This document shows, piece by piece, positions 3,237 to 16,906 of a DNA stretch of 18,324 nt (the first letter of the stretch is position 1; every line of letters starts with the position of its first letter). This DNA comes from a virus (taxonomy: Duplodnaviria; Heunggongvirae; Uroviricota; Caudoviricetes). Position numbers and translations under genes: made by a program. The DNA is taken from the IMG/VR virus record IMGVR_UViG_2606217174_000014; one strand, 5' to 3'. A model generated the notes under the pieces. It ran no database searches and was not told the origin of the DNA. It worked only from the letters and a program-made list of their open reading frames with translations.

Positions 3237-3560
3237 CTACTGTAATCGATCCGAACGTAAATGCGGCAAAACTCGACTCCACTTATCATCCTGCCACGGC
3301 CGGAATTTTACATGTGCCGTTTCTCTGGCAAGGATTGCCTGTGCCTTATTGAGTATCTGGGGATATTCTTGCTCGATAGAAGTGAAGCGACCAGCTTCAC
3401 GATGCTCCGCAACCTGAAGAAGAGGAGTAACGTTCTGGTAGGTAATTAACATCACATTCCCTGCTCGCCATAACCAGGCGAGTGTGCAAAGTTCGTTATC
3501 AGTGAATTGTTTTGTGATTGGGTATTGTTGAACTGCTAGAACGAGAACGCCAGCATCCAT
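3237..3560 (-). CDS. Hypothetical protein (107 aa, or ~72 aa from the internal start MLITYQNV...)
   Basis: ORF in the ybcK-downstream region. The first ATG has a weak Shine-Dalgarno; the internal ATG has AGGGA upstream. No family recognised. Confidence 0.3.
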   Translation of the reverse strand: MDAGVLVLAVQQYPITKQFTDNELCTLAWLWRAGNVMLITYQNVTPLLQVAEHREAGRFTSIEQEYPQILNKAQAILARETAHVKFRPWQDDKWSRVLPHLRSDRLQ

Positions 3561-3671
3561 TGGCAGTCTCTATAGTAAAACCATAGCTCAGGACGCTTCG
3601 TTCAGGATAGATAATTTTAATGTACTTACCTAACTTTCTTACTATAGCACGGTTGAAAAAGTGATTATTAC

Positions 3672-5198
3672 TCAAAAATAAACCTCACCATCAACCATAT
3701 ATTTGAGAGTACTTATCGCCTGCTGGGCGGATATTGTTTTCATTAAAGGATAGTGTTTAAAAACAATGCCATTCATAAAATAGATATCACAGGTTTTATT
3801 ATCTGTATTGATTATGATTTTTTCGAATGTTTTATAGGCAAGTGTACGACATAGCTCTCGCCCATTTTTACTGGTTAAGTCAATAGCATGAAAATCACCA
3901 AGTGAACTCACCGCTTTACTCTTCAAAGTTTTTAATGATACAGAAGCCCTTCGTAATTCCTTATCTAATACTCTGATTTTTTCTGCTATAGCGGTAACTT
4001 CAGGCGCAACAGATAATGCAGCAATTAAATTATTAATTTTCATCTGGAGCTCAATAATTTTCAACTCTAAAGTTTCATTAGCATCTTTCTTGTTTTCAAC
4101 TGGTTGGATTTTACTACAATTAAAAAGCAACTCATTAATGATATTATAATCAACCAAATCTCTCTTTATTGATGGCCTGTCACATCGATGCAGTCTTCTC
4201 ATCGGACAAACATAATAGCCATGCAAACTTCTAGATACCGCATGAACAATCATGGTATTACCACAAGCCTCGCACTTCATAACTGTTCGAAGTAGATTTA
4301 TCAACATAGGATTTTTGCTACTATTGCTAATACCAAAAGGTGCCAACCGAATTTCCTGTACAGCGTAAAACAAATCATCTGATATGACTCTGGGATAATA
4401 GCCAGCGATTTCACTTATTCCTTTACCTCTTGCACGATATGAAGGTACGCATATACCTATCAGAGCTTTATTCGCTAATAATTTTTCAATTACAGAAGGT
4501 CCCCATGCACTTTCTTTTCCTGAGAAATTCTTTACAGCATGATCATTTAAATACTTGGCTATTGCATTCAATGAGCGCCTTTCCATCCTGAGTTTAAAAA
4601 TTAGCTCAATAGTTTTCACCCTGTCGGGGTCTGGAACAAAAGCCGTTCTTTTGTCATCTAAGGAGAGCCATCTCGGACAAGACGCCGTCATAATCGTACC
4701 TGATTCCAGTGCATCCTGCCGTTTTTTCTTCCATGATAATTTAACCCGACTTGACTTTATCTCGCTTTCTTCATTTGCCCTTTGTGCTATAAGTATGGCT
4801 TTTATTAATGAATATGGCTCATTCAAAGAGTCAATATTATAGACTGTATTGTCGCAAAGAGTTATAACATCAATACCGTGATTCAAAATCAATTTCAGAC
4901 GTTCAATCGCTTCACCGACTTTTTCTCTTGAAAGTCTGTCCAGACTTTCAACTAACAATGTAGTTCCTGGCAATATATAACCATGCTCTATAGCATCTAA
5001 AAATTCCGAAAAAGCTCCTGATTGTGCATGCTTTCCTTTGAATGCACTTAATCCTAAATCTTCATATGTTATGGTATCAAGATAATAATCACTATTTACC
5101 TTTAACCATTCAGCAATAAGTCTTCTCTGTCGGTTTAATGAGTCGCCAGACATCTGACCTGGTGATGAAAATCGCATATATGCTATGGCTTTTTTCAT
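3672..5198 (-). CDS. ybcK: Large serine recombinase (DLP12 YbcK-like)
   Basis: 508 aa. N-terminal resolvase catalytic motif (AYMRFSSPGQ with the serine nucleophile, then SLNRQ), followed by a recombinase domain, Cys clusters (CEACGN...C...C) and a C-terminal coiled-coil region. AGGTG Shine-Dalgarno. Confidence 0.85.
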   Translation of the reverse strand: MKKAIAYMRFSSPGQMSGDSLNRQRRLIAEWLKVNSDYYLDTITYEDLGLSAFKGKHAQSGAFSEFLDAIEHGYILPGTTLLVESLDRLSREKVGEAIERLKLILNHGIDVITLCDNTVYNIDSLNEPYSLIKAILIAQRANEESEIKSSRVKLSWKKKRQDALESGTIMTASCPRWLSLDDKRTAFVPDPDRVKTIELIFKLRMERRSLNAIAKYLNDHAVKNFSGKESAWGPSVIEKLLANKALIGICVPSYRARGKGISEIAGYYPRVISDDLFYAVQEIRLAPFGISNSSKNPMLINLLRTVMKCEACGNTMIVHAVSRSLHGYYVCPMRRLHRCDRPSIKRDLVDYNIINELLFNCSKIQPVENKKDANETLELKIIELQMKINNLIAALSVAPEVTAIAEKIRVLDKELRRASVSLKTLKSKAVSSLGDFHAIDLTSKNGRELCRTLAYKTFEKIIINTDNKTCDIYFMNGIVFKHYPLMKTISAQQAISTLKYMVDGEVYF

Positions 5199-5453
5199 GG
5201 TGACACCTGCTAACGTATGCTTTTATAAACCTTAGTGGTGGGATATAATTTTGTTTAATTTTTATTTAAAAAGACAATTAAGGTCACATTATCTTGAATA
5301 TACAACAATAATCGTATTGCAATTTTCTTACGCCATAATCTTGAAAGCACAAAAGAATACATAAAAAAATAAAGACATTAACAAAAAGCATAAAACGAGG
5401 CTCATATAAATATAAGAGCCTCCATATTTTAGTCGTTTAGAAACAAATTATTT

Positions 5454-5786
5454 TTAATGTGGTGTGCTTCGTGACAATAAATTAATAACCAACACACCGG
5501 CACAAATCAACATCATGCCTATAATGGCTGGCAGGTCCAGCCGTTGGCCGAAAAGTCCCCATGACAGTAAGCTAATCAGGACAATACCGACTCCTGACCA
5601 GATAGCATAAGCAATCCCTGTAGGAATATAAGCCAGCGTCTGAGCTAATAACCAGAATGATGCACAATAACAAATAATTGTACCAACAGATGGCCATAAC
5701 CGTGTAAAACCTTCTGAAAACTTCATTAAGGTTGTACCAATGACCTCTGCAAGTATTGCACCACCAAGATAAATATAAGGGTTCAT
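5454..5786 (-). CDS. emrE: SMR-family multidrug efflux transporter EmrE
   Basis: ORF 5454..5840; the internal start MNPYIYLGGAILAEVIGTTLMKFSEGFTRLWPSVG... gives a 110-aa four-helix SMR protein matching EmrE. Confidence 0.9.
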   Translation of the reverse strand: MNPYIYLGGAILAEVIGTTLMKFSEGFTRLWPSVGTIICYCASFWLLAQTLAYIPTGIAYAIWSGVGIVLISLLSWGLFGQRLDLPAIIGMMLICAGVLVINLLSRSTPH

Positions 5787-5853
5787 AGAATATTCTTTCC
5801 TGTTCAAACTGGAGAGAATTGTACTACAGTTTGAACTCAACTCACCTGTTTCA

Positions 5854-6156
5854 TCATTGTGTACCCATTGATGTTCTTTTATATACCCTCAATACCCGTT
5901 TCATCGCGGCACTCTGGCGACACTCCTTAAAAATCAGATTCGTGCTCACCTTTCCTTCCCGTTCTTCTCTGGTAGCAAACCGGTAATACACCGTTCGCCA
6001 GACCTTACCTTCGATAGCCAGAAGACCTGCCCGTGCCATTTTAGCCGCAGCCTGATTTATGCTGGTTACCGTTGCGCCTGTTACCGCGGCAACGTCCTGC
6101 GCACAGAATTTCTTATGAGTCCCCAGGTAATGAATAATTGCCTCTTTGCCCGTCAT
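5854..6156 (-). CDS. ren: Ren-like protein
   Basis: MTGKEAIIHYLGTH...ATVTSINQAAAKMARAG...VWRTVYYRFATREEREGK... matches lambda Ren as recalled; the C-terminus diverges. The start overlaps the end of P (ATGA). Confidence 0.8.
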   Translation of the reverse strand: MTGKEAIIHYLGTHKKFCAQDVAAVTGATVTSINQAAAKMARAGLLAIEGKVWRTVYYRFATREEREGKVSTNLIFKECRQSAAMKRVLRVYKRTSMGTQ

Positions 6157-8705: not shown

Positions 8706-8809
8706 AACAACCTCCGTGGTTAATTTGAATCAAGATTAAAACTATGGTTGTTTTTAGTCAACAACCATTTTCGTTTGATGGAATAAAACCTTGGTTGTAC
8801 ATTTGGACT
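8706..8809. promoter_or_regulatory. oR/pR/pRM divergent immunity control region
   Basis: Palindrome ATGGTTGTT-n7-AACAACCAT (8744-8768) plus further GGTTG/CAACC motifs. Minus-strand pR: -35 TTGACT (8761..8756) and -10 TAATCT (8738..8733). Plus-strand pRM-like promoter: -35 TTGATG (8775-8780), 17-bp spacer, -10 TACATT (8798-8803), placing the transcript start at the A of the cI ATG. Confidence 0.6.
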
Positions 8810-9499
8810 ATGAAAACAACACTCTCAGAAAGACTTAAAGAAGCCAGATTAGCGCGAGGCCTTACACAAAAGGCGCTTGGGGATTTGGTCGGGGTTAGCC
8901 AGGCTGCTATTCAGAAAATCGAAACAGGGAAAGCTAATCAAACAACTAAAATCGTGGAGATCGCGAACGCTTTGGGTGTGCGCGCAGAATGGTTATCTTC
9001 TGGCGTTGGAAATATGTCAGACAGTACAGTGCAACCAATACAATCAACTGTCAGCCATTCCAAATACTTCAAGATTGACGTTCTTGATATAGAAGTCAGT
9101 GCTGGGCCGGGAGTCATCAACCGTGAGTTTGTAGAAGTTCTACGCTCGGTTGAGTACTCGTTTGACGATGCTCGTCACATGTTCGATGGTAGGAAGGCGG
9201 AAAATATCCGCATCATTAACGTGCGTGGTGACAGCATGTCAGGAACGATCGAACCAGGTGATCTGCTGTTCGTTGATATCACAGTTAAATCTTTCGACGG
9301 TGATGGTATCTATGCGTTTCTGTACGACGACACAGCCCATGTAAAGCGCCTGCAAATGATGAAGGATAAGCTGCTGGTCATCTCTGATAACAAAAGCTAC
9401 TCACCGTGGGACCCGATCGAGAAAGACGAGATGAACCGGGTGTTCATCTTCGGTAAGGTTATTGGGAGCATGCCGCAGACATATAGGAAGCATGGGTAG
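8810..9499 (+). CDS. cI: CI-type prophage repressor (HTH plus LexA/S24-like autocleavage domain)
   Basis: MKTTLSERLKEARLARGLTQKALGDLVGVSQAAIQKIETGK... followed by a C-terminal region with GDSM (catalytic Ser) and a downstream Lys. ORF-track start 8744 rejected because it would overlap the operators. Confidence 0.85.
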   Translation: MKTTLSERLKEARLARGLTQKALGDLVGVSQAAIQKIETGKANQTTKIVEIANALGVRAEWLSSGVGNMSDSTVQPIQSTVSHSKYFKIDVLDIEVSAGPGVINREFVEVLRSVEYSFDDARHMFDGRKAENIRIINVRGDSMSGTIEPGDLLFVDITVKSFDGDGIYAFLYDDTAHVKRLQMMKDKLLVISDNKSYSPWDPIEKDEMNRVFIFGKVIGSMPQTYRKHG

Positions 9500-12875: not shown

Positions 12876-13097
12876 ATGGCAGACATCATTGATTCAGCAT
12901 CAGAAATTGAAGAATTACAGCGCAACACAGCAATAAAAATGCGCCGCCTGAACCACCAGGCTATATCTGCCACTCATTGTTGTGAGTGTGGCGATCCGAT
13001 AGATGAACGAAGACGCCTGGTCGTTCAGGGTTGTCGGACTTGTGCAAGTTGCCAGGAAGATCTGGAGCTTATCAGTAAACAGAGAGGTTCGAAGTGA
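12876..13097 (+). CDS. TraR/DksA-family C4 zinc-finger protein (lambda Orf73-like)
   Basis: 73 aa with CCECGD...x17...CRTCASC, the DksA/TraR zinc-finger pattern. Confidence 0.8.
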   Translation: MADIIDSASEIEELQRNTAIKMRRLNHQAISATHCCECGDPIDERRRLVVQGCRTCASCQEDLELISKQRGSK

Positions 13098-13396
13098 GCG
13101 AAATTAACTCTCAGGCACTGCGTGAAGCGGCAGAGCAGGCAATGCATGACGACTGGGGATTTGACGCAGACCTTTTCCATGAATTGGTAACACCATCGAT
13201 TGTGCTGGAACTGCTGGATGAGCGGGAAAGAAACCAGCAATACATCAAACGCCGCGACCAGGAGAACGAGGAAATTGCGCTAACGGTAGGAAAGCTGCGC
13301 GTTGAGCTGGAAGCAGCAAAATCAAAACTCAACGAGCAGCGTGAATATTACGAAGGTGTTATCTCGGATGGAAGTAAGCGTATTGCTGAACTGTAG
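13094..13396 (+). CDS. Ea22-like protein, apparently C-terminally truncated (100 aa)
   Basis: MSEINSQALREAAEQAMHDDWGFDADLFHELV...; the coiled-coil N-terminal part resembles lambda Ea22 as I recall it. It ends at tandem stops (TAGGCCTAG) where foreign AT-rich DNA begins. Confidence 0.55.
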   Translation: MSEINSQALREAAEQAMHDDWGFDADLFHELVTPSIVLELLDERERNQQYIKRRDQENEEIALTVGKLRVELEAAKSKLNEQREYYEGVISDGSKRIAEL

Positions 13397-13646
13397 GCCT
13401 AGGTTGAGTGTACAAGATTTGCATACGTAAGAGCAAAAGACAAGGGAGAATTGATCAGAGTTATTACCTGCCAACCAACGGGATATTACGCTTACGTACC
13501 ATGTAACTAGGAATCCTTGAAGTGGCAGCCTAACTGTGGATACACTGAAATGGCGATTTGGTAACATGTTTCGCACAAGGCTGTTACTACGCTTAGAGAT
13601 AATCAGTCATGATTAAATGCTTTGTAAAAAGTAAAAGGAAATTACA

Positions 13647-14261
13647 ATGAAAAAATCAACACTAATTTTAGGGCTTACGTTAATTGTCTCATCTCAAATA
13701 CCATCGGCAATGGCAAAAAATGAATCAAAACTTTGGGTTGTTGTTGATCGAACGGAAAGACATACCTGCCCTTCAAGTAAATGTGGAGTGGCTGGGAAAC
13801 TATTTTTCAGGGAAGGCGTAGATTTTCTAGAAAAAAAAGGTGAATGGGTTCGTATAACTGAGCCATATTCAGCCTCATGTGTGGGAGGGGAAAGCGAATA
13901 TATTAAAGAAGGTAATAAATCCTGCACAAGAAAAAACGGAATCGTTAATGGCAAGTTTTCAGAATGGGTTAAACTTAGTGATCTTAGCAGTGAAAGGCCA
14001 TCAGATCCTGCTGAAAATGCGAGCAGAAATGATACCTTAATCAAAGGATCTGATGACTACCGTATATACAAAAAAGAGTTTTCTTCGGCAGCTAGGAAGT
14101 TAATAAGTGAAGGTGTCTGCACGGAGAGCGATTTTAAGGAAGTTGGAGGGTGGATGGCATCAAGCAATAAGGGTGAAAACATCTATTTCACATATTGCGG
14201 AGGAATGACGTTGTCGAACAGAATATATCTAGACGTTAAAAGTGGAAAGACTTTTAGATAA
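13647..14261 (+). CDS. Secreted Cys-rich hypothetical protein (204 aa, Sec signal peptide, predicted periplasmic)
   Basis: N-terminal MKKSTLILGLTLIVSSQIPSAMA|KN (AxA cleavage site, no lipobox); the mature part has 8 Cys; AAGGA Shine-Dalgarno; AT-rich. Confidence 0.7.
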   Translation: MKKSTLILGLTLIVSSQIPSAMAKNESKLWVVVDRTERHTCPSSKCGVAGKLFFREGVDFLEKKGEWVRITEPYSASCVGGESEYIKEGNKSCTRKNGIVNGKFSEWVKLSDLSSERPSDPAENASRNDTLIKGSDDYRIYKKEFSSAARKLISEGVCTESDFKEVGGWMASSNKGENIYFTYCGGMTLSNRIYLDVKSGKTFR

Positions 14262-14554
14262 TATGATATTACCAATGACAGCATTAATTTAATGCCTCCA
14301 TAGAATTATCTCTAGGAAGTAAGTATAAGAAAAGTCCGCACAATGAGCTGCTGCGGGCTTTGTGTTATTCGCCATATTTTATGAAGCAAATACGACACTA
14401 TAGATAATTAAGCGTTACTGGTTGTCGATTCCTCACTCATTCCTGCTGATGGCTGTCTTCTTGTATGTGTCATTGAAGGGTAATATCGCGTAAAAAGATA
14501 CCGGAAGTATCCGCGCCGCCATGATTGTCTTTCTCCTGATGCAGGAAAAGCAGA

Positions 14555-14893
14555 ATGACTAAATCAGCAGCAGAGCGCAAAGCCGATCAGAGAGCCAAGC
14601 AAGCATCATCCGGTATGCGTAAGCTGGAGCTTGTACTTGATGCTCAGGAAATTGAAATGCTGGAGCGTAACTGAGCCACGCGCCGCTTCAGGCGTGCGCC
14701 TTACGAGTTTGGTGAGTACATAGCGTTACTGAGCCGCCAGGATGATGCACGTGTGCGCTGGCGTATAAAATCGATTAGCAGAAAACGTTGCCGTAAGTGC
14801 GGCGAGAGAGTTCCTGTTAATTCATGCCCGTGTAATGGTGACTCACAATACTGGGTGACCAAAGGCTGGCACGAAACAAAATTAATGATATAA
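14555..14893 (+). pseudogene. Zinc-ribbon small-protein gene interrupted by an in-frame TGA (39 aa, stop, 72 aa)
   Basis: Manual translation MTKSAAERKADQRAKQASSGMRKLELVLDAQEIEMLERN*ATRRFRRAPYEFGEYIALLSRQDDARVRWRIKSISRKRCRKCGERVPVNSCPCNGDSQYWVTKGWHETKLMI. One continuous frame with a TGA at 14672-14674. Confidence 0.4.
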
Positions 14894-14921
14894 ATCTCTG
14901 TGACATGTCACGGAGGCGGCA

Positions 14922-15350
14922 ATGAAATTAGACCAGCAATATCTAAAAGATCTACTTATCGCATTCGAAAAAACTTATGGCCCTGACACGATGCTTAGTG
15001 AACTAGAGGATAATGGCTTTAATAGATATGACCAAAATTTTATTTTCCATATGCGATTATTATGTGACTACGAATTAATAGTTAGGGTTGATGGAAAACC
15101 TGGGTTCGGTCATATAATGTCCAACGAGTTAGGGGAAGGTGTTGAATATAGTTGGATCGAAGTACCACTGAGGTTGACAGCAAGAGGGCATGATTTTATT
15201 GCTGACTTACGTCAAAAGGAGGTCTGGCAAGCTATAAAAACAAACTTTAAGGATGAGGGGATTAGTACTCTTATGAGTGTTTCAAAATCACTAGCAAAAG
15301 GCTTTGCAAGAAAAAAAATAAAAGATATTACAGGAATAGATATTGAATAA
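14922..15350 (+). CDS. Hypothetical protein, 142 aa, AT-rich orphan
   Basis: GGAGG Shine-Dalgarno 6 nt upstream of the ATG; followed by an intrinsic terminator; no family recognised. Confidence 0.65.
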   Translation: MKLDQQYLKDLLIAFEKTYGPDTMLSELEDNGFNRYDQNFIFHMRLLCDYELIVRVDGKPGFGHIMSNELGEGVEYSWIEVPLRLTARGHDFIADLRQKEVWQAIKTNFKDEGISTLMSVSKSLAKGFARKKIKDITGIDIE

Positions 15351-15396
15351 TTCTTAGCATAAAGCAACTACTGCCTTTGGTGAAAATTATATCTGA

Positions 15397-15419
15397 ACTC
15401 GCTACGGCGAGTTTTTTTT
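15397..15419 (+). terminator. Rho-independent terminator after the 142-aa gene
   Basis: ACTCGC-tacg-GCGAGT followed by TTTTTTTT. Confidence 0.7.
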
Positions 15420-15459
15420 ATGGAGATGATAAATGCACTTCCGAGTCACAGGTGAATAG

Positions 15460-15600
15460 AATGGAGAACCATTCAACAGAGTTATCGAAGCCGAGAACAT
15501 CAGCGACTGCTATGACCACTGGATGCTGTGGGCGCAGATAGCACATGCAGACGTAACCAATATTCGAATTGAAGAACTGAAAGAACACCAAGCCGCCTGA
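15460..15600 (+). pseudogene. 3-prime gene remnant with no start codon (...GEPFNRVIEAENISDCYDHWMLWAQIAHADVTNIRIEELKEHQAA*)
   Basis: Open frame of about 46 codons bounded upstream by TAG, with no in-frame start near its 5-prime end; it ends inside the terminator upstream of xis. Confidence 0.3.
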
Positions 15601-15613
15601 TGGCGGTTTTTTC
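15591..15613 (+). terminator. Terminator-like hairpin upstream of xis
   Basis: CCGCC-tgat-GGCGG followed by TTTTTT. Confidence 0.6.
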
Positions 15614-15639
15614 TTGCGTGTAATTGCGGAGACTTTGCG

Positions 15640-15858
15640 ATGTACTTGACACTTCAGGAGTGGAACGCTCGCCAGCGACGCCCAAGAAGCCTTGAAACAG
15701 TTCGTCGATGGGTGCGCGAATGCAGGATATTCCCTCCTCCGGTTAAGGATGGAAGAGAATATCTGTTCCACGAATCAGCGGTAAAGGTTGACTTAAATCG
15801 ACCAGTAACAGGTAGCCTTTTGAAGAGGATCAGAAATGGGAAGAAGGCGAAGTCATGA
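15640..15858 (+). CDS. xis: Excisionase Xis
   Basis: 72-aa translation MYLTLQEWNARQRRPRSLETVRRWVRECRIFPPPVKDGREYLFHESAVKVDLNRPVTGSLLKRIRNGKKAKS matches lambda Xis. Confidence 0.95.
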   Translation: MYLTLQEWNARQRRPRSLETVRRWVRECRIFPPPVKDGREYLFHESAVKVDLNRPVTGSLLKRIRNGKKAKS

Positions 15859-16906
15859 GCGCCGGGATTTACCCCCTAACCTTTATATAAGAAACAATGG
15901 ATATTACTGCTACAGGGACCCAAGGACGGGTAAAGAGTTTGGATTAGGCCGAGACAGGCGAATCGCAATCACTGAAGCTATACAGGCCAACATTGAGTTA
16001 TTTTCAGGACACAAACACAAGCCTCTGACAGCGAGAATCAACAGTGATAATTCCGTTACGTTACATTCATGGCTTGATCGCTACGAAAAAATCCTGGCCA
16101 GCAGAGGAATCAAGCAGAAGACACTCATAAATTACATGAGCAAAATTAAAGCAATAAGGAGGGGTCTGCCTGATGCTCCACTTGAAGACATCACCACAAA
16201 AGAAATTGCGGCAATGCTCAATGGATACATAGACGAGGGCAAGGCGGCGTCAGCCAAGTTAATCAGATCAACACTGAGCGATGCATTCCGAGAGGCAATA
16301 GCTGAAGGCCATATAACAACAAACCCTGTCGCTGCCACTCGCGCAGCAAAATCAGAGGTAAGGAGATCAAGACTTACGGCTGACGAATACCTGAAAATTT
16401 ATCAAGCAGCAGAATCATCACCATGTTGGCTCAGACTTGCAATGGAACTGGCTGTTGTTACCGGGCAACGAGTTGGTGATTTATGCGAAATGAAGTGGTC
16501 TGATATCGTAGATGGATATCTTTATGTCGAGCAAAGCAAAACAGGCGTAAAAATTGCCATCCCAACAGTATTGCATGTTGATGCTCTCGGAATATCAATG
16601 AAGGAAACACTTGATAAATGCAAAGAGATTCTTGGCGGAGAAACCATAATTGCATCTACTCGTCGCGAACCGCTTTCATCCGGCACAGTATCAAGGTATT
16701 TTATGCGCGCACGAAAAGCATCAGGTCTTTCCTTCGAAGGGGATCCGCCTACCTTTCACGAGTTGCGCAGTTTGTCTGCAAGACTCTATGAGAAGCAGAT
16801 AAGCGATAAGTTTGCTCAACATCTTCTCGGGCATAAGTCGGACACCATGGCATCACAGTATCGTGATGACAGAGGCAGGGAGTGGGACAAAATTGAAATC
16901 AAATAA
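15836..16906 (+). CDS. int: Tyrosine integrase Int (lambda type)
   Basis: 356-aa translation MGRRRSHERRDLPPNLYIRNNGYYCYRDPRTGKEFGLGRDRR... matches lambda Int; overlaps the end of xis. Confidence 0.95.
   Translation: MGRRRSHERRDLPPNLYIRNNGYYCYRDPRTGKEFGLGRDRRIAITEAIQANIELFSGHKHKPLTARINSDNSVTLHSWLDRYEKILASRGIKQKTLINYMSKIKAIRRGLPDAPLEDITTKEIAAMLNGYIDEGKAASAKLIRSTLSDAFREAIAEGHITTNPVAATRAAKSEVRRSRLTADEYLKIYQAAESSPCWLRLAMELAVVTGQRVGDLCEMKWSDIVDGYLYVEQSKTGVKIAIPTVLHVDALGISMKETLDKCKEILGGETIIASTRREPLSSGTVSRYFMRARKASGLSFEGDPPTFHELRSLSARLYEKQISDKFAQHLLGHKSDTMASQYRDDRGREWDKIEIK

Follow-up and report, generated by a model that had tools for sequence, protein, structure and literature searches.

The 18,324-nucleotide viral sequence IMGVR_UViG_2606217174_000014 (the window, by which we mean the whole stretch of DNA that was analysed) is a lambda-like prophage integrated beside ybhC. 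The cI-like repressor gene (8744–9499), gam, bet, exo and the genes between exo and xis all lie on the plus strand, which is the early leftward (pL) direction, and the exo-xis genes found here include DUF1317, DUF1382, a TraR/DksA-like gene and a truncated ea22-like gene. The subject of this report is a further gene of this region, at 14922–15350 (Table 1). This accessory gene of the lambda-like prophage is genuine and maintained by selection, its product belongs to the DUF2513 family and, as judged from alignment with lambda, it replaces ea8.5 in the exo-xis region.

The open reading frame extends from an ATG start codon to a TAA stop at 15348–15350. As stated in the initial annotation of this DNA, which was made from the letters alone, a strong Shine-Dalgarno motif (GGAGG) stands five bases ahead of the ATG and the gene is markedly richer in AT than its neighbours, with a G+C content (GC) of 35.2% compared with 49.6% for the upstream pseudogene, 48.9% for xis, 45.2% for int and 52.1% for exo. 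Comparison with homologues that are 73–76% identical in protein sequence gave a nonsynonymous divergence (dN) of 0.16–0.19 with synonymous divergence (dS) saturated, and comparison with close E. coli alleles gave dN/dS values of 0.12–0.40. On these substitution patterns we regard 14922–15350 as a real gene, one that is under purifying selection. The full 142 codons are retained in 40 of 53 closely related loci, and M1 is invariant in an alignment of 29 sequences. A consensus scan of positions 13400–16000 found no promoter-like site on the plus strand.

The gene had been described as an orphan, a view that has to be given up. Its product scores 42.7 bits on the Pfam model PF10711 (DUF2513), for which the gathering threshold is 29.6, with residues 2–115 aligned to positions 1–100 of the 100 in the model; it matches phrog_585 across residues 1–135 (E = 7e-34); and RefSeq holds an identical protein, WP_000762734.1, under the name 'DUF2513 domain-containing protein'. 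The protein is already catalogued in Pfam, PHROGs and RefSeq, and is not a new gene discovery. When 1.84 billion representatives were searched with a profile, 1,462 clusters of relatives (50% identity) were returned at E ≤ 0.001 and 272 at E ≤ 1e-10, mostly of 130–145 residues, and PF10711 was found in 111 of 113 homologues, the remaining two being short fragments. The motifs F-H-M-R-L-L and P-L-R-L-T-x-x-G-H-D-F are conserved in common with the family. The Pfam model spans approximately the first 115 residues, and the predicted C-terminal helices at residues 99–137 form an extension in most of the stand-alone members.

Relatives of 47–77% identity occur throughout the Enterobacterales, and a genome scan showed DUF2513 also in other Proteobacteria and in a few other phyla. 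Of 5,426 complete E. coli genomes, 183 carry the coding sequence, the common laboratory strain ATCC 8739 among them, and a protein-level search of isolated phages gave 3 of 50,697 records, a close copy being present only in phage Chlobot. A neighbouring winged-helix family is YjcQ (PF09639), named from a prophage-like element of Bacillus subtilis: some DUF2513 relatives score on the YjcQ model as well (P0126 with 26.9 bits, the threshold being 23.3), and a YjcQ-named viral protein is among the structural matches, whereas the window protein itself has no YjcQ match in Pfam. As YjcQ is likewise uncharacterised, this link gives no function. Literature searches returned nothing for the RefSeq accessions or for 'phrog_585', noise only for 'YjcQ', and only two incidental hits to the names of the PADLOC candidates discussed below.

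An AlphaFold model built on the 29-sequence alignment (predicted local distance difference test score, pLDDT, 92.7; predicted template modelling score, pTM, 0.82) indicates that the DUF2513 protein is a winged helix-turn-helix domain with three C-terminal helices. In this model, three helices are followed by a four-stranded wing (residues 53–85) and by helices at residues 87–97, 99–108 and 114–137. No enzymatic or membrane effector domain was found, DUF2513 being the sole Pfam match above threshold and the model comprising only the winged helix and the additional helices. The predicted arrangement, a winged helix-turn-helix with helices suited to dimerisation, is that of a MarR/PadR-type fold, although no Pfam MarR or PadR model matched at E ≤ 1. 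Compared with PadR, MarR and HxlR regulators, to which its sequence identity is only 8–20% and whose Pfam models it does not match, the window protein differs in having a four-stranded wing with an insertion and an acidic domain. The charge of its winged-helix domain is -7.2 (isoelectric point 4.76), while the C-terminal 45 residues are basic, and the median charge of the N-terminal domain among 72 diverse family members is -6.3. Only M1, Y7, L12, H43, G63, R84, T86 and G89 are nearly invariant across the family. Sequence and profile searches of the PDB found no relative, only chance matches, and a viral structure library yielded only uncharacterised proteins and generic helix-turn-helix proteins.

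The edges of the inserted DNA were located by megablast, in which query positions 1–287 match phiV10-like phages and positions 787–1041 match lambda. Because similarity to phiV10 p55 ends on the left and similarity to lambda resumes on the right, the DUF2513 gene can be assigned to a cassette of about 500 bp. Upstream of about 15386 there is no DNA similarity to lambda, the alignment breaking at the gene boundary; downstream of this point, a few bases 5' of an intrinsic-terminator-like hairpin, it resumes and continues, across the broken remnant of orf55 and a further hairpin, into xis. Since lambda similarity restarts right after it, the DUF2513 gene is indeed the last gene of the cargo block, as had been claimed. 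Lambda has ea8.5 and orf55 in the interval from ea22 to xis (PMC8614690). The DUF2513 protein and Ea8.5 are alike in that each is a small early exo-xis protein encoded in the identical slot, followed by the same hairpin. The likeness is positional only, as Ea8.5 is described in the literature as having a homeodomain/zinc-finger fold, and has been proposed as a transcription factor (PMC8614690), whereas DUF2513 is a predicted winged helix.

The hairpin that follows the gene has its stem at 15395–15414 and a run of eight T residues ending at 15419, and RNA folding agrees with the prediction; the terminator scan of the region returned 5 sites, against 1.8 expected. A terminator-like structure thus exists after the gene, but the statement that it is the gene's own does not stand, as a nearly identical hairpin is found by alignment in lambda, there 3' of ea8.5. 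The hairpin is lambda backbone, and so is not a terminator brought by the cargo. It may correspond to tL3, a named leftward terminator of lambda; the papers found that name tL3 give neither coordinates nor sequence. The lambda hairpin after ea8.5, at 29.3 kb, has no annotation in record J02459. The placement of the gene directly upstream of xis was likewise too simple, since the orf55 remnant and the second hairpin structure (15590–15609) intervene.

On the left, the gene is preceded by the remains of another. The upstream zinc-ribbon gene that had been listed does exist as an open reading frame (14753–14893), but this is merely the C-terminal fragment of a 112-codon gene inactivated by an in-frame TGA at codon 40 (14672–14674), for which RefSeq gives the remark 'internal stop'. 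The complete gene matches phrog_536 (E = 1.9e-16), labelled a transcriptional regulator in PHROGs, and has no Pfam match; between 14600 and 14886 its DNA is about 90% identical to p55, the last gene of phiV10 and of related epsilon15-type phages. Among related E. coli loci the TGA stop is shared by about one half, the others being intact. The codon, which encodes cysteine in intact alleles, is TGA in several distinct E. coli alleles, so that the broken allele looks old and widely spread, not like an isolated mutation.

For comparison of neighbouring genes we used 65 lineages defined at 80% identity. The phrog_536 gene adjoins the DUF2513 gene in seven of these and lies about 3.7 kb away in an eighth. 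Within the Enterobacterales it is the usual upstream neighbour. In the seven, all of them Enterobacterales phage lineages, it stands about 27–30 bases 5' of DUF2513 even where phrog_536 itself is only 47–62% identical, and because the spacing is kept in spite of such divergence, the two genes appear to have a tendency to travel together. The association is not obligatory, as phiV10 has phrog_536 without DUF2513 and most lineages have DUF2513 without phrog_536. Since DUF2513 is intact where its partner is broken, we take it to be independent of that partner.

Table 1. The DUF2513 gene and the features that flank it, in window coordinates.
Feature	Coordinates	Strand	Basis
phrog_536 zinc-ribbon pseudogene, 112 codons, similar to phiV10 p55	14555..14893	+	translation, PHROG, RefSeq, allele comparison
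AT-rich DUF2513 cassette, ~500 bp	14887..15386 (approximate)	.	megablast edges, alignment, GC
Shine-Dalgarno GGAGG	14912..14916	+	5 bases 5' of ATG; read from sequence
DUF2513-family protein (predicted winged helix), coding sequence, 142 aa	14922..15350	+	open reading frame list, Pfam, PHROG, RefSeq, selection, AlphaFold
Intrinsic-terminator-like hairpin GAACTCGC-TACG-GCGAGTTT + T run	15395..15419	+	terminator scan, RNA fold, alignment with lambda and phage Chlobot
lambda orf55 remnant, internal stop; lambda backbone	15433..15600 (about)	+	RefSeq pseudogene call in identical locus, lambda alignment
Second terminator-like hairpin 5' of xis; lambda backbone	15590..15615	+	terminator scan; identical in lambda
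xis, lambda type	15640..15858	+	open reading frame list, RefSeq identical locus, lambda record
int, lambda type	15836..16906	+	open reading frame list, RefSeq identical locus, lambda record
Host gene ybhC, beyond int	from 17041		RefSeq annotation of identical locus

Among the nearest neighbours in the 65 lineages, no gene is conserved family-wide. The ea8.5 slot of lambda-like prophages is one neighbourhood among several. In epsilon15-like Cronobacter prophages DUF2513 ends the early operon, right before the small terminase gene; in Pantoea prophages it stands right before an oppositely oriented integrase gene; and in Serratia prophages it is found in a nin-like region. These Cronobacter, Pantoea and Serratia homologues lie inside early operons, with only a short gap upstream. 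In a Klebsiella phage DUF2513 occurs between the lysis cassette and terminase, and in Klebsiella IncFIB plasmids of about 110 kb it is an isolated gene. In the Vibrio cholerae superintegron it forms a cassette among toxin-antitoxin and acetyltransferase cassettes. The same prophage fragment as in the window, from the exo-xis genes via DUF2513 to xis and int, is also present within large plasmids, namely pABWA45_1 of E. coli (L158) and 15 others, their hosts being E. coli, Klebsiella, Enterobacter and Citrobacter.

On the 5.9-kb mobilizable Aeromonas plasmid pAV1812-1 (L160, 2534–3405), the last 14 bases of a RelE/ParE toxin gene overlap the DUF2513 gene, and a gene for a TraY-domain (TraY-type antitoxin) protein, the RelE/ParE gene and DUF2513 appear to form one operon. 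In a P2-like element (L122, 1822–4977), a DUF2513 pseudogene with two stops comes after replication gene A, and beyond it stand genes for a retron-type reverse transcriptase (PADLOC RT_I-B, E = 2e-111) and an AAA_21 ATPase; a retron was rejected as a conserved partner, this being the one locus and its DUF2513 copy having two stop codons. A nucleotidyltransferase was likewise rejected as a partner, as the one located is on the opposite strand and is therefore a separate module.

A different kind of evidence comes from the longer members of the family. Of the top 150 representatives, some 10 clearly exceed the others in length, and these carry the DUF2513 module on the N-terminal side of further domains. 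In P0140 it precedes a PF10137 TIR domain of the CAP12/Pycsar type, with PADLOC matches to PDC-S35 and PycTIR; in P0239 it precedes TIR_2, with matches to PDC-S66 (E = 1.8e-57) and a ThsB-like family; in P0203 it precedes a DUF4062-like region, with a match to PDC-S60 (E = 2e-28); and P0212, P0125 and P0208 have an AbiTi-like C-terminus (AbiTi, E = 5e-7 to 3e-4). In the PycTIR and PDC-S66 profiles, the N-terminal region corresponding to DUF2513 stays unmatched. Relatives of the PF10137 TIR domain number in the thousands and carry a wide variety of N-terminal domains, only about seven clusters being DUF2513-TIR, and because the TIR domain pairs with such varied partners, the DUF2513 module behaves like one of many interchangeable effector front ends. 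The window protein differs from these TIR and AbiTi effectors in having no effector domain, and resembles the non-catalytic front end only. It has no match in NCBIfam, and the V. cholerae homologue (P0272) has none in PADLOC at E ≤ 0.01.

In immune effectors, sensor domains are usually found at the N-terminal position. Our best guess is that free-standing DUF2513 would be a recognition module in the conflict of mobile elements with their hosts or with rival phages. It would most likely work by binding and not by catalysis, as it has no catalytic or membrane domain, and the acidic winged-helix domain suggests that what it binds may be a protein or a small ligand rather than naked DNA. Upon infection or induction, transcription from pL, subject to N antitermination, would probably take in the gene along with the other exo-xis genes, and the strong GGAGG ribosome-binding site would serve for its translation; the orientation of the gene, the result of the promoter scan on the plus strand and the position of homologues inside early operons all point to such early-operon expression. 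Once made, the protein might occupy the target of immune proteins or poison their assembly, which would amount to counter-defence, or it might act with an unlinked partner, which would amount to exclusion.

We tentatively favour a role for DUF2513 in the conflict between mobile elements and hosts, be it defence or counter-defence, while holding its probability to be somewhat short of even. Such a role is plausible but unproven, a few distant relatives being fused to effectors while the stand-alone protein has no PADLOC match. Several observations weigh against it. The fusions are a small minority of the family, with the approximately ten longer representatives and seven TIR clusters mentioned above, and the window protein matches none of the families in PADLOC-DB 2.0 at E ≤ 1. 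Defence genes are no more than scattered among the nearest neighbours, with no background rate for comparison, and the timing of expression is read from gene layout. A winged helix of this size is mostly a DNA-binding regulator, and a local basic surface formed by R45, R55, K59, R84 and R88 could be compatible with the net charge. No paper on DUF2513 was found, its sole mention in the literature being unrelated. The proposal in the initial annotation that the gene encodes a small defence, anti-defence or exclusion protein is borne out only in part: at the level of the family, the effector fusions, the accessory slots (in several phage types, on phage-like plasmids, on a small mobilizable plasmid and in the V. 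cholerae superintegron) and the AT-rich cargo point to conflict biology, but nothing speaks for it directly, the window protein having no effector domain and no match in PADLOC or NCBIfam.

A serious rival, though somewhat less probable in our view, is that DUF2513 is instead a conventional dimeric winged-helix transcription factor in the style of PadR or MarR, which would bind DNA of the phage or the host and so tune the decision between lysis and lysogeny or the physiology of the host. In PadR and MarR proteins the helices beyond the wing form the dimer interface, which would suit the predicted C-terminal helices, and the conserved R-L-T-x-x-G that closes the wing is a usual feature of such families; against this stand the strongly acidic character of the winged-helix domain throughout the family, a predicted recognition helix that is mostly hydrophobic and in which only H43 is conserved family-wide, and the lack of a MarR or PadR match in Pfam. 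A similar role has been proposed for other exo-xis proteins, Ea8.5, the occupant of the slot in lambda, being suggested as a transcription factor (PMC8614690), and the usual upstream partner is a transcriptional regulator according to PHROGs; yet no conserved neighbour presents itself as a regulated target, and DUF2513 is found as a lone cassette on elements of very different kinds, as would be uncommon for a regulator requiring a matching operator.

That the protein is a single-gene defence or superinfection-exclusion system expressed from the lysogen we consider unlikely. AT-rich cargo followed by a terminator would suit such a gene, but the scan gave it no promoter of its own, and the operon around it is repressed in the lysogen. 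The homologues at classic accessory sites (the Klebsiella phage and plasmids, the Serratia and P2-like elements and the superintegron) are in keeping with a defence function, although the copy adjacent to the retron is a pseudogene; and while relatives are fused to defence effectors, the window protein has neither an effector domain nor a PADLOC match.

A more specific form of the conflict role is that free-standing DUF2513 proteins constitute a widespread counter-defence family, being copies of the recognition modules of TIR- and AbiT-type proteins that are made early and either soak up the trigger or ligand or co-assemble with the effectors and poison them. Stated in this detail, we regard the proposal as a long shot.

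Only a slight chance attaches, in our estimate, to the idea that DUF2513 forms a two-gene module with the gene upstream, either the phrog_536 protein or, in Aeromonas, the ParE toxin, as a toxin-antitoxin-like or co-regulator pair. The constant spacing behind phrog_536 in seven of the 65 lineages, while the identity of phrog_536 itself falls to 47–62%, is what such a module would lead one to expect, as is the overlap with the RelE/ParE gene after the TraY-type antitoxin gene on the 5.9-kb plasmid. However, the phrog_536 gene is interrupted by a stop codon both in the window and in roughly half of the related E. coli loci, with DUF2513 intact, and each gene occurs alone, phrog_536 in phiV10 and DUF2513 in most lineages. 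A type II toxin-antitoxin pair with the upstream gene was rejected in view of the TGA at codon 40 and the restriction of adjacency to seven of 65 lineages. Finally, while the region is a mosaic with many pseudogenes (those of phrog_536 and orf55, along with a umuD-like remnant and the truncated ea22), the strong purifying selection indicated above, the full length of 40 of the 53 loci, the large family and the confident structure prediction effectively refute non-functional hitch-hiking DNA or a chance open reading frame, to which we assign almost no probability.

Other cargo is present in the window. The Ead/Ea22-like gene at 13094–13396 has only 100 codons, its RefSeq equivalent being 'incomplete, missing C-terminus', and the cargo block seems to have taken the place of the remainder of ea22 in addition to ea8.5. 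Another AT-rich cargo gene (13647–14261; 38.5% GC) encodes a 204-residue protein with an N-terminal signal-like sequence, which matches phrog_8310 (E = 7e-135) and gives only weak Pfam hints of SH3-like and lipoprotein-signal regions; a hairpin lies 3' of this gene at about 14335–14362, and in strain PI12 the gene is disrupted by an IS3 element. Non-coding DNA at 14415–14530, 5' of the phrog_536 gene, translates to the remnant of a UmuD/S24-peptidase-like C-terminus, and in the Chlobot annotation an open reading frame overlapping this remnant is labelled 'UmuD-like'. Beside the replication genes, an AT-rich segment on the minus strand (3400–5900; 32–39% GC) has the appearance of a separate inserted element and contains a 508-residue large serine recombinase (3672–5198) and a small multidrug resistance family transporter (5454–5840). 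A search of Rfam gave no match anywhere in the window.

The DUF2513 gene is an ordinary, catalogued accessory gene. It forms a cassette of about 500 bp in the place of ea8.5, within the exo-xis region of lambda-like phages, a region as yet poorly understood, and for a family of about 1,460 clusters, the effector fusions and the spread across phages, plasmids and integron cassettes provide a modest lead to function.
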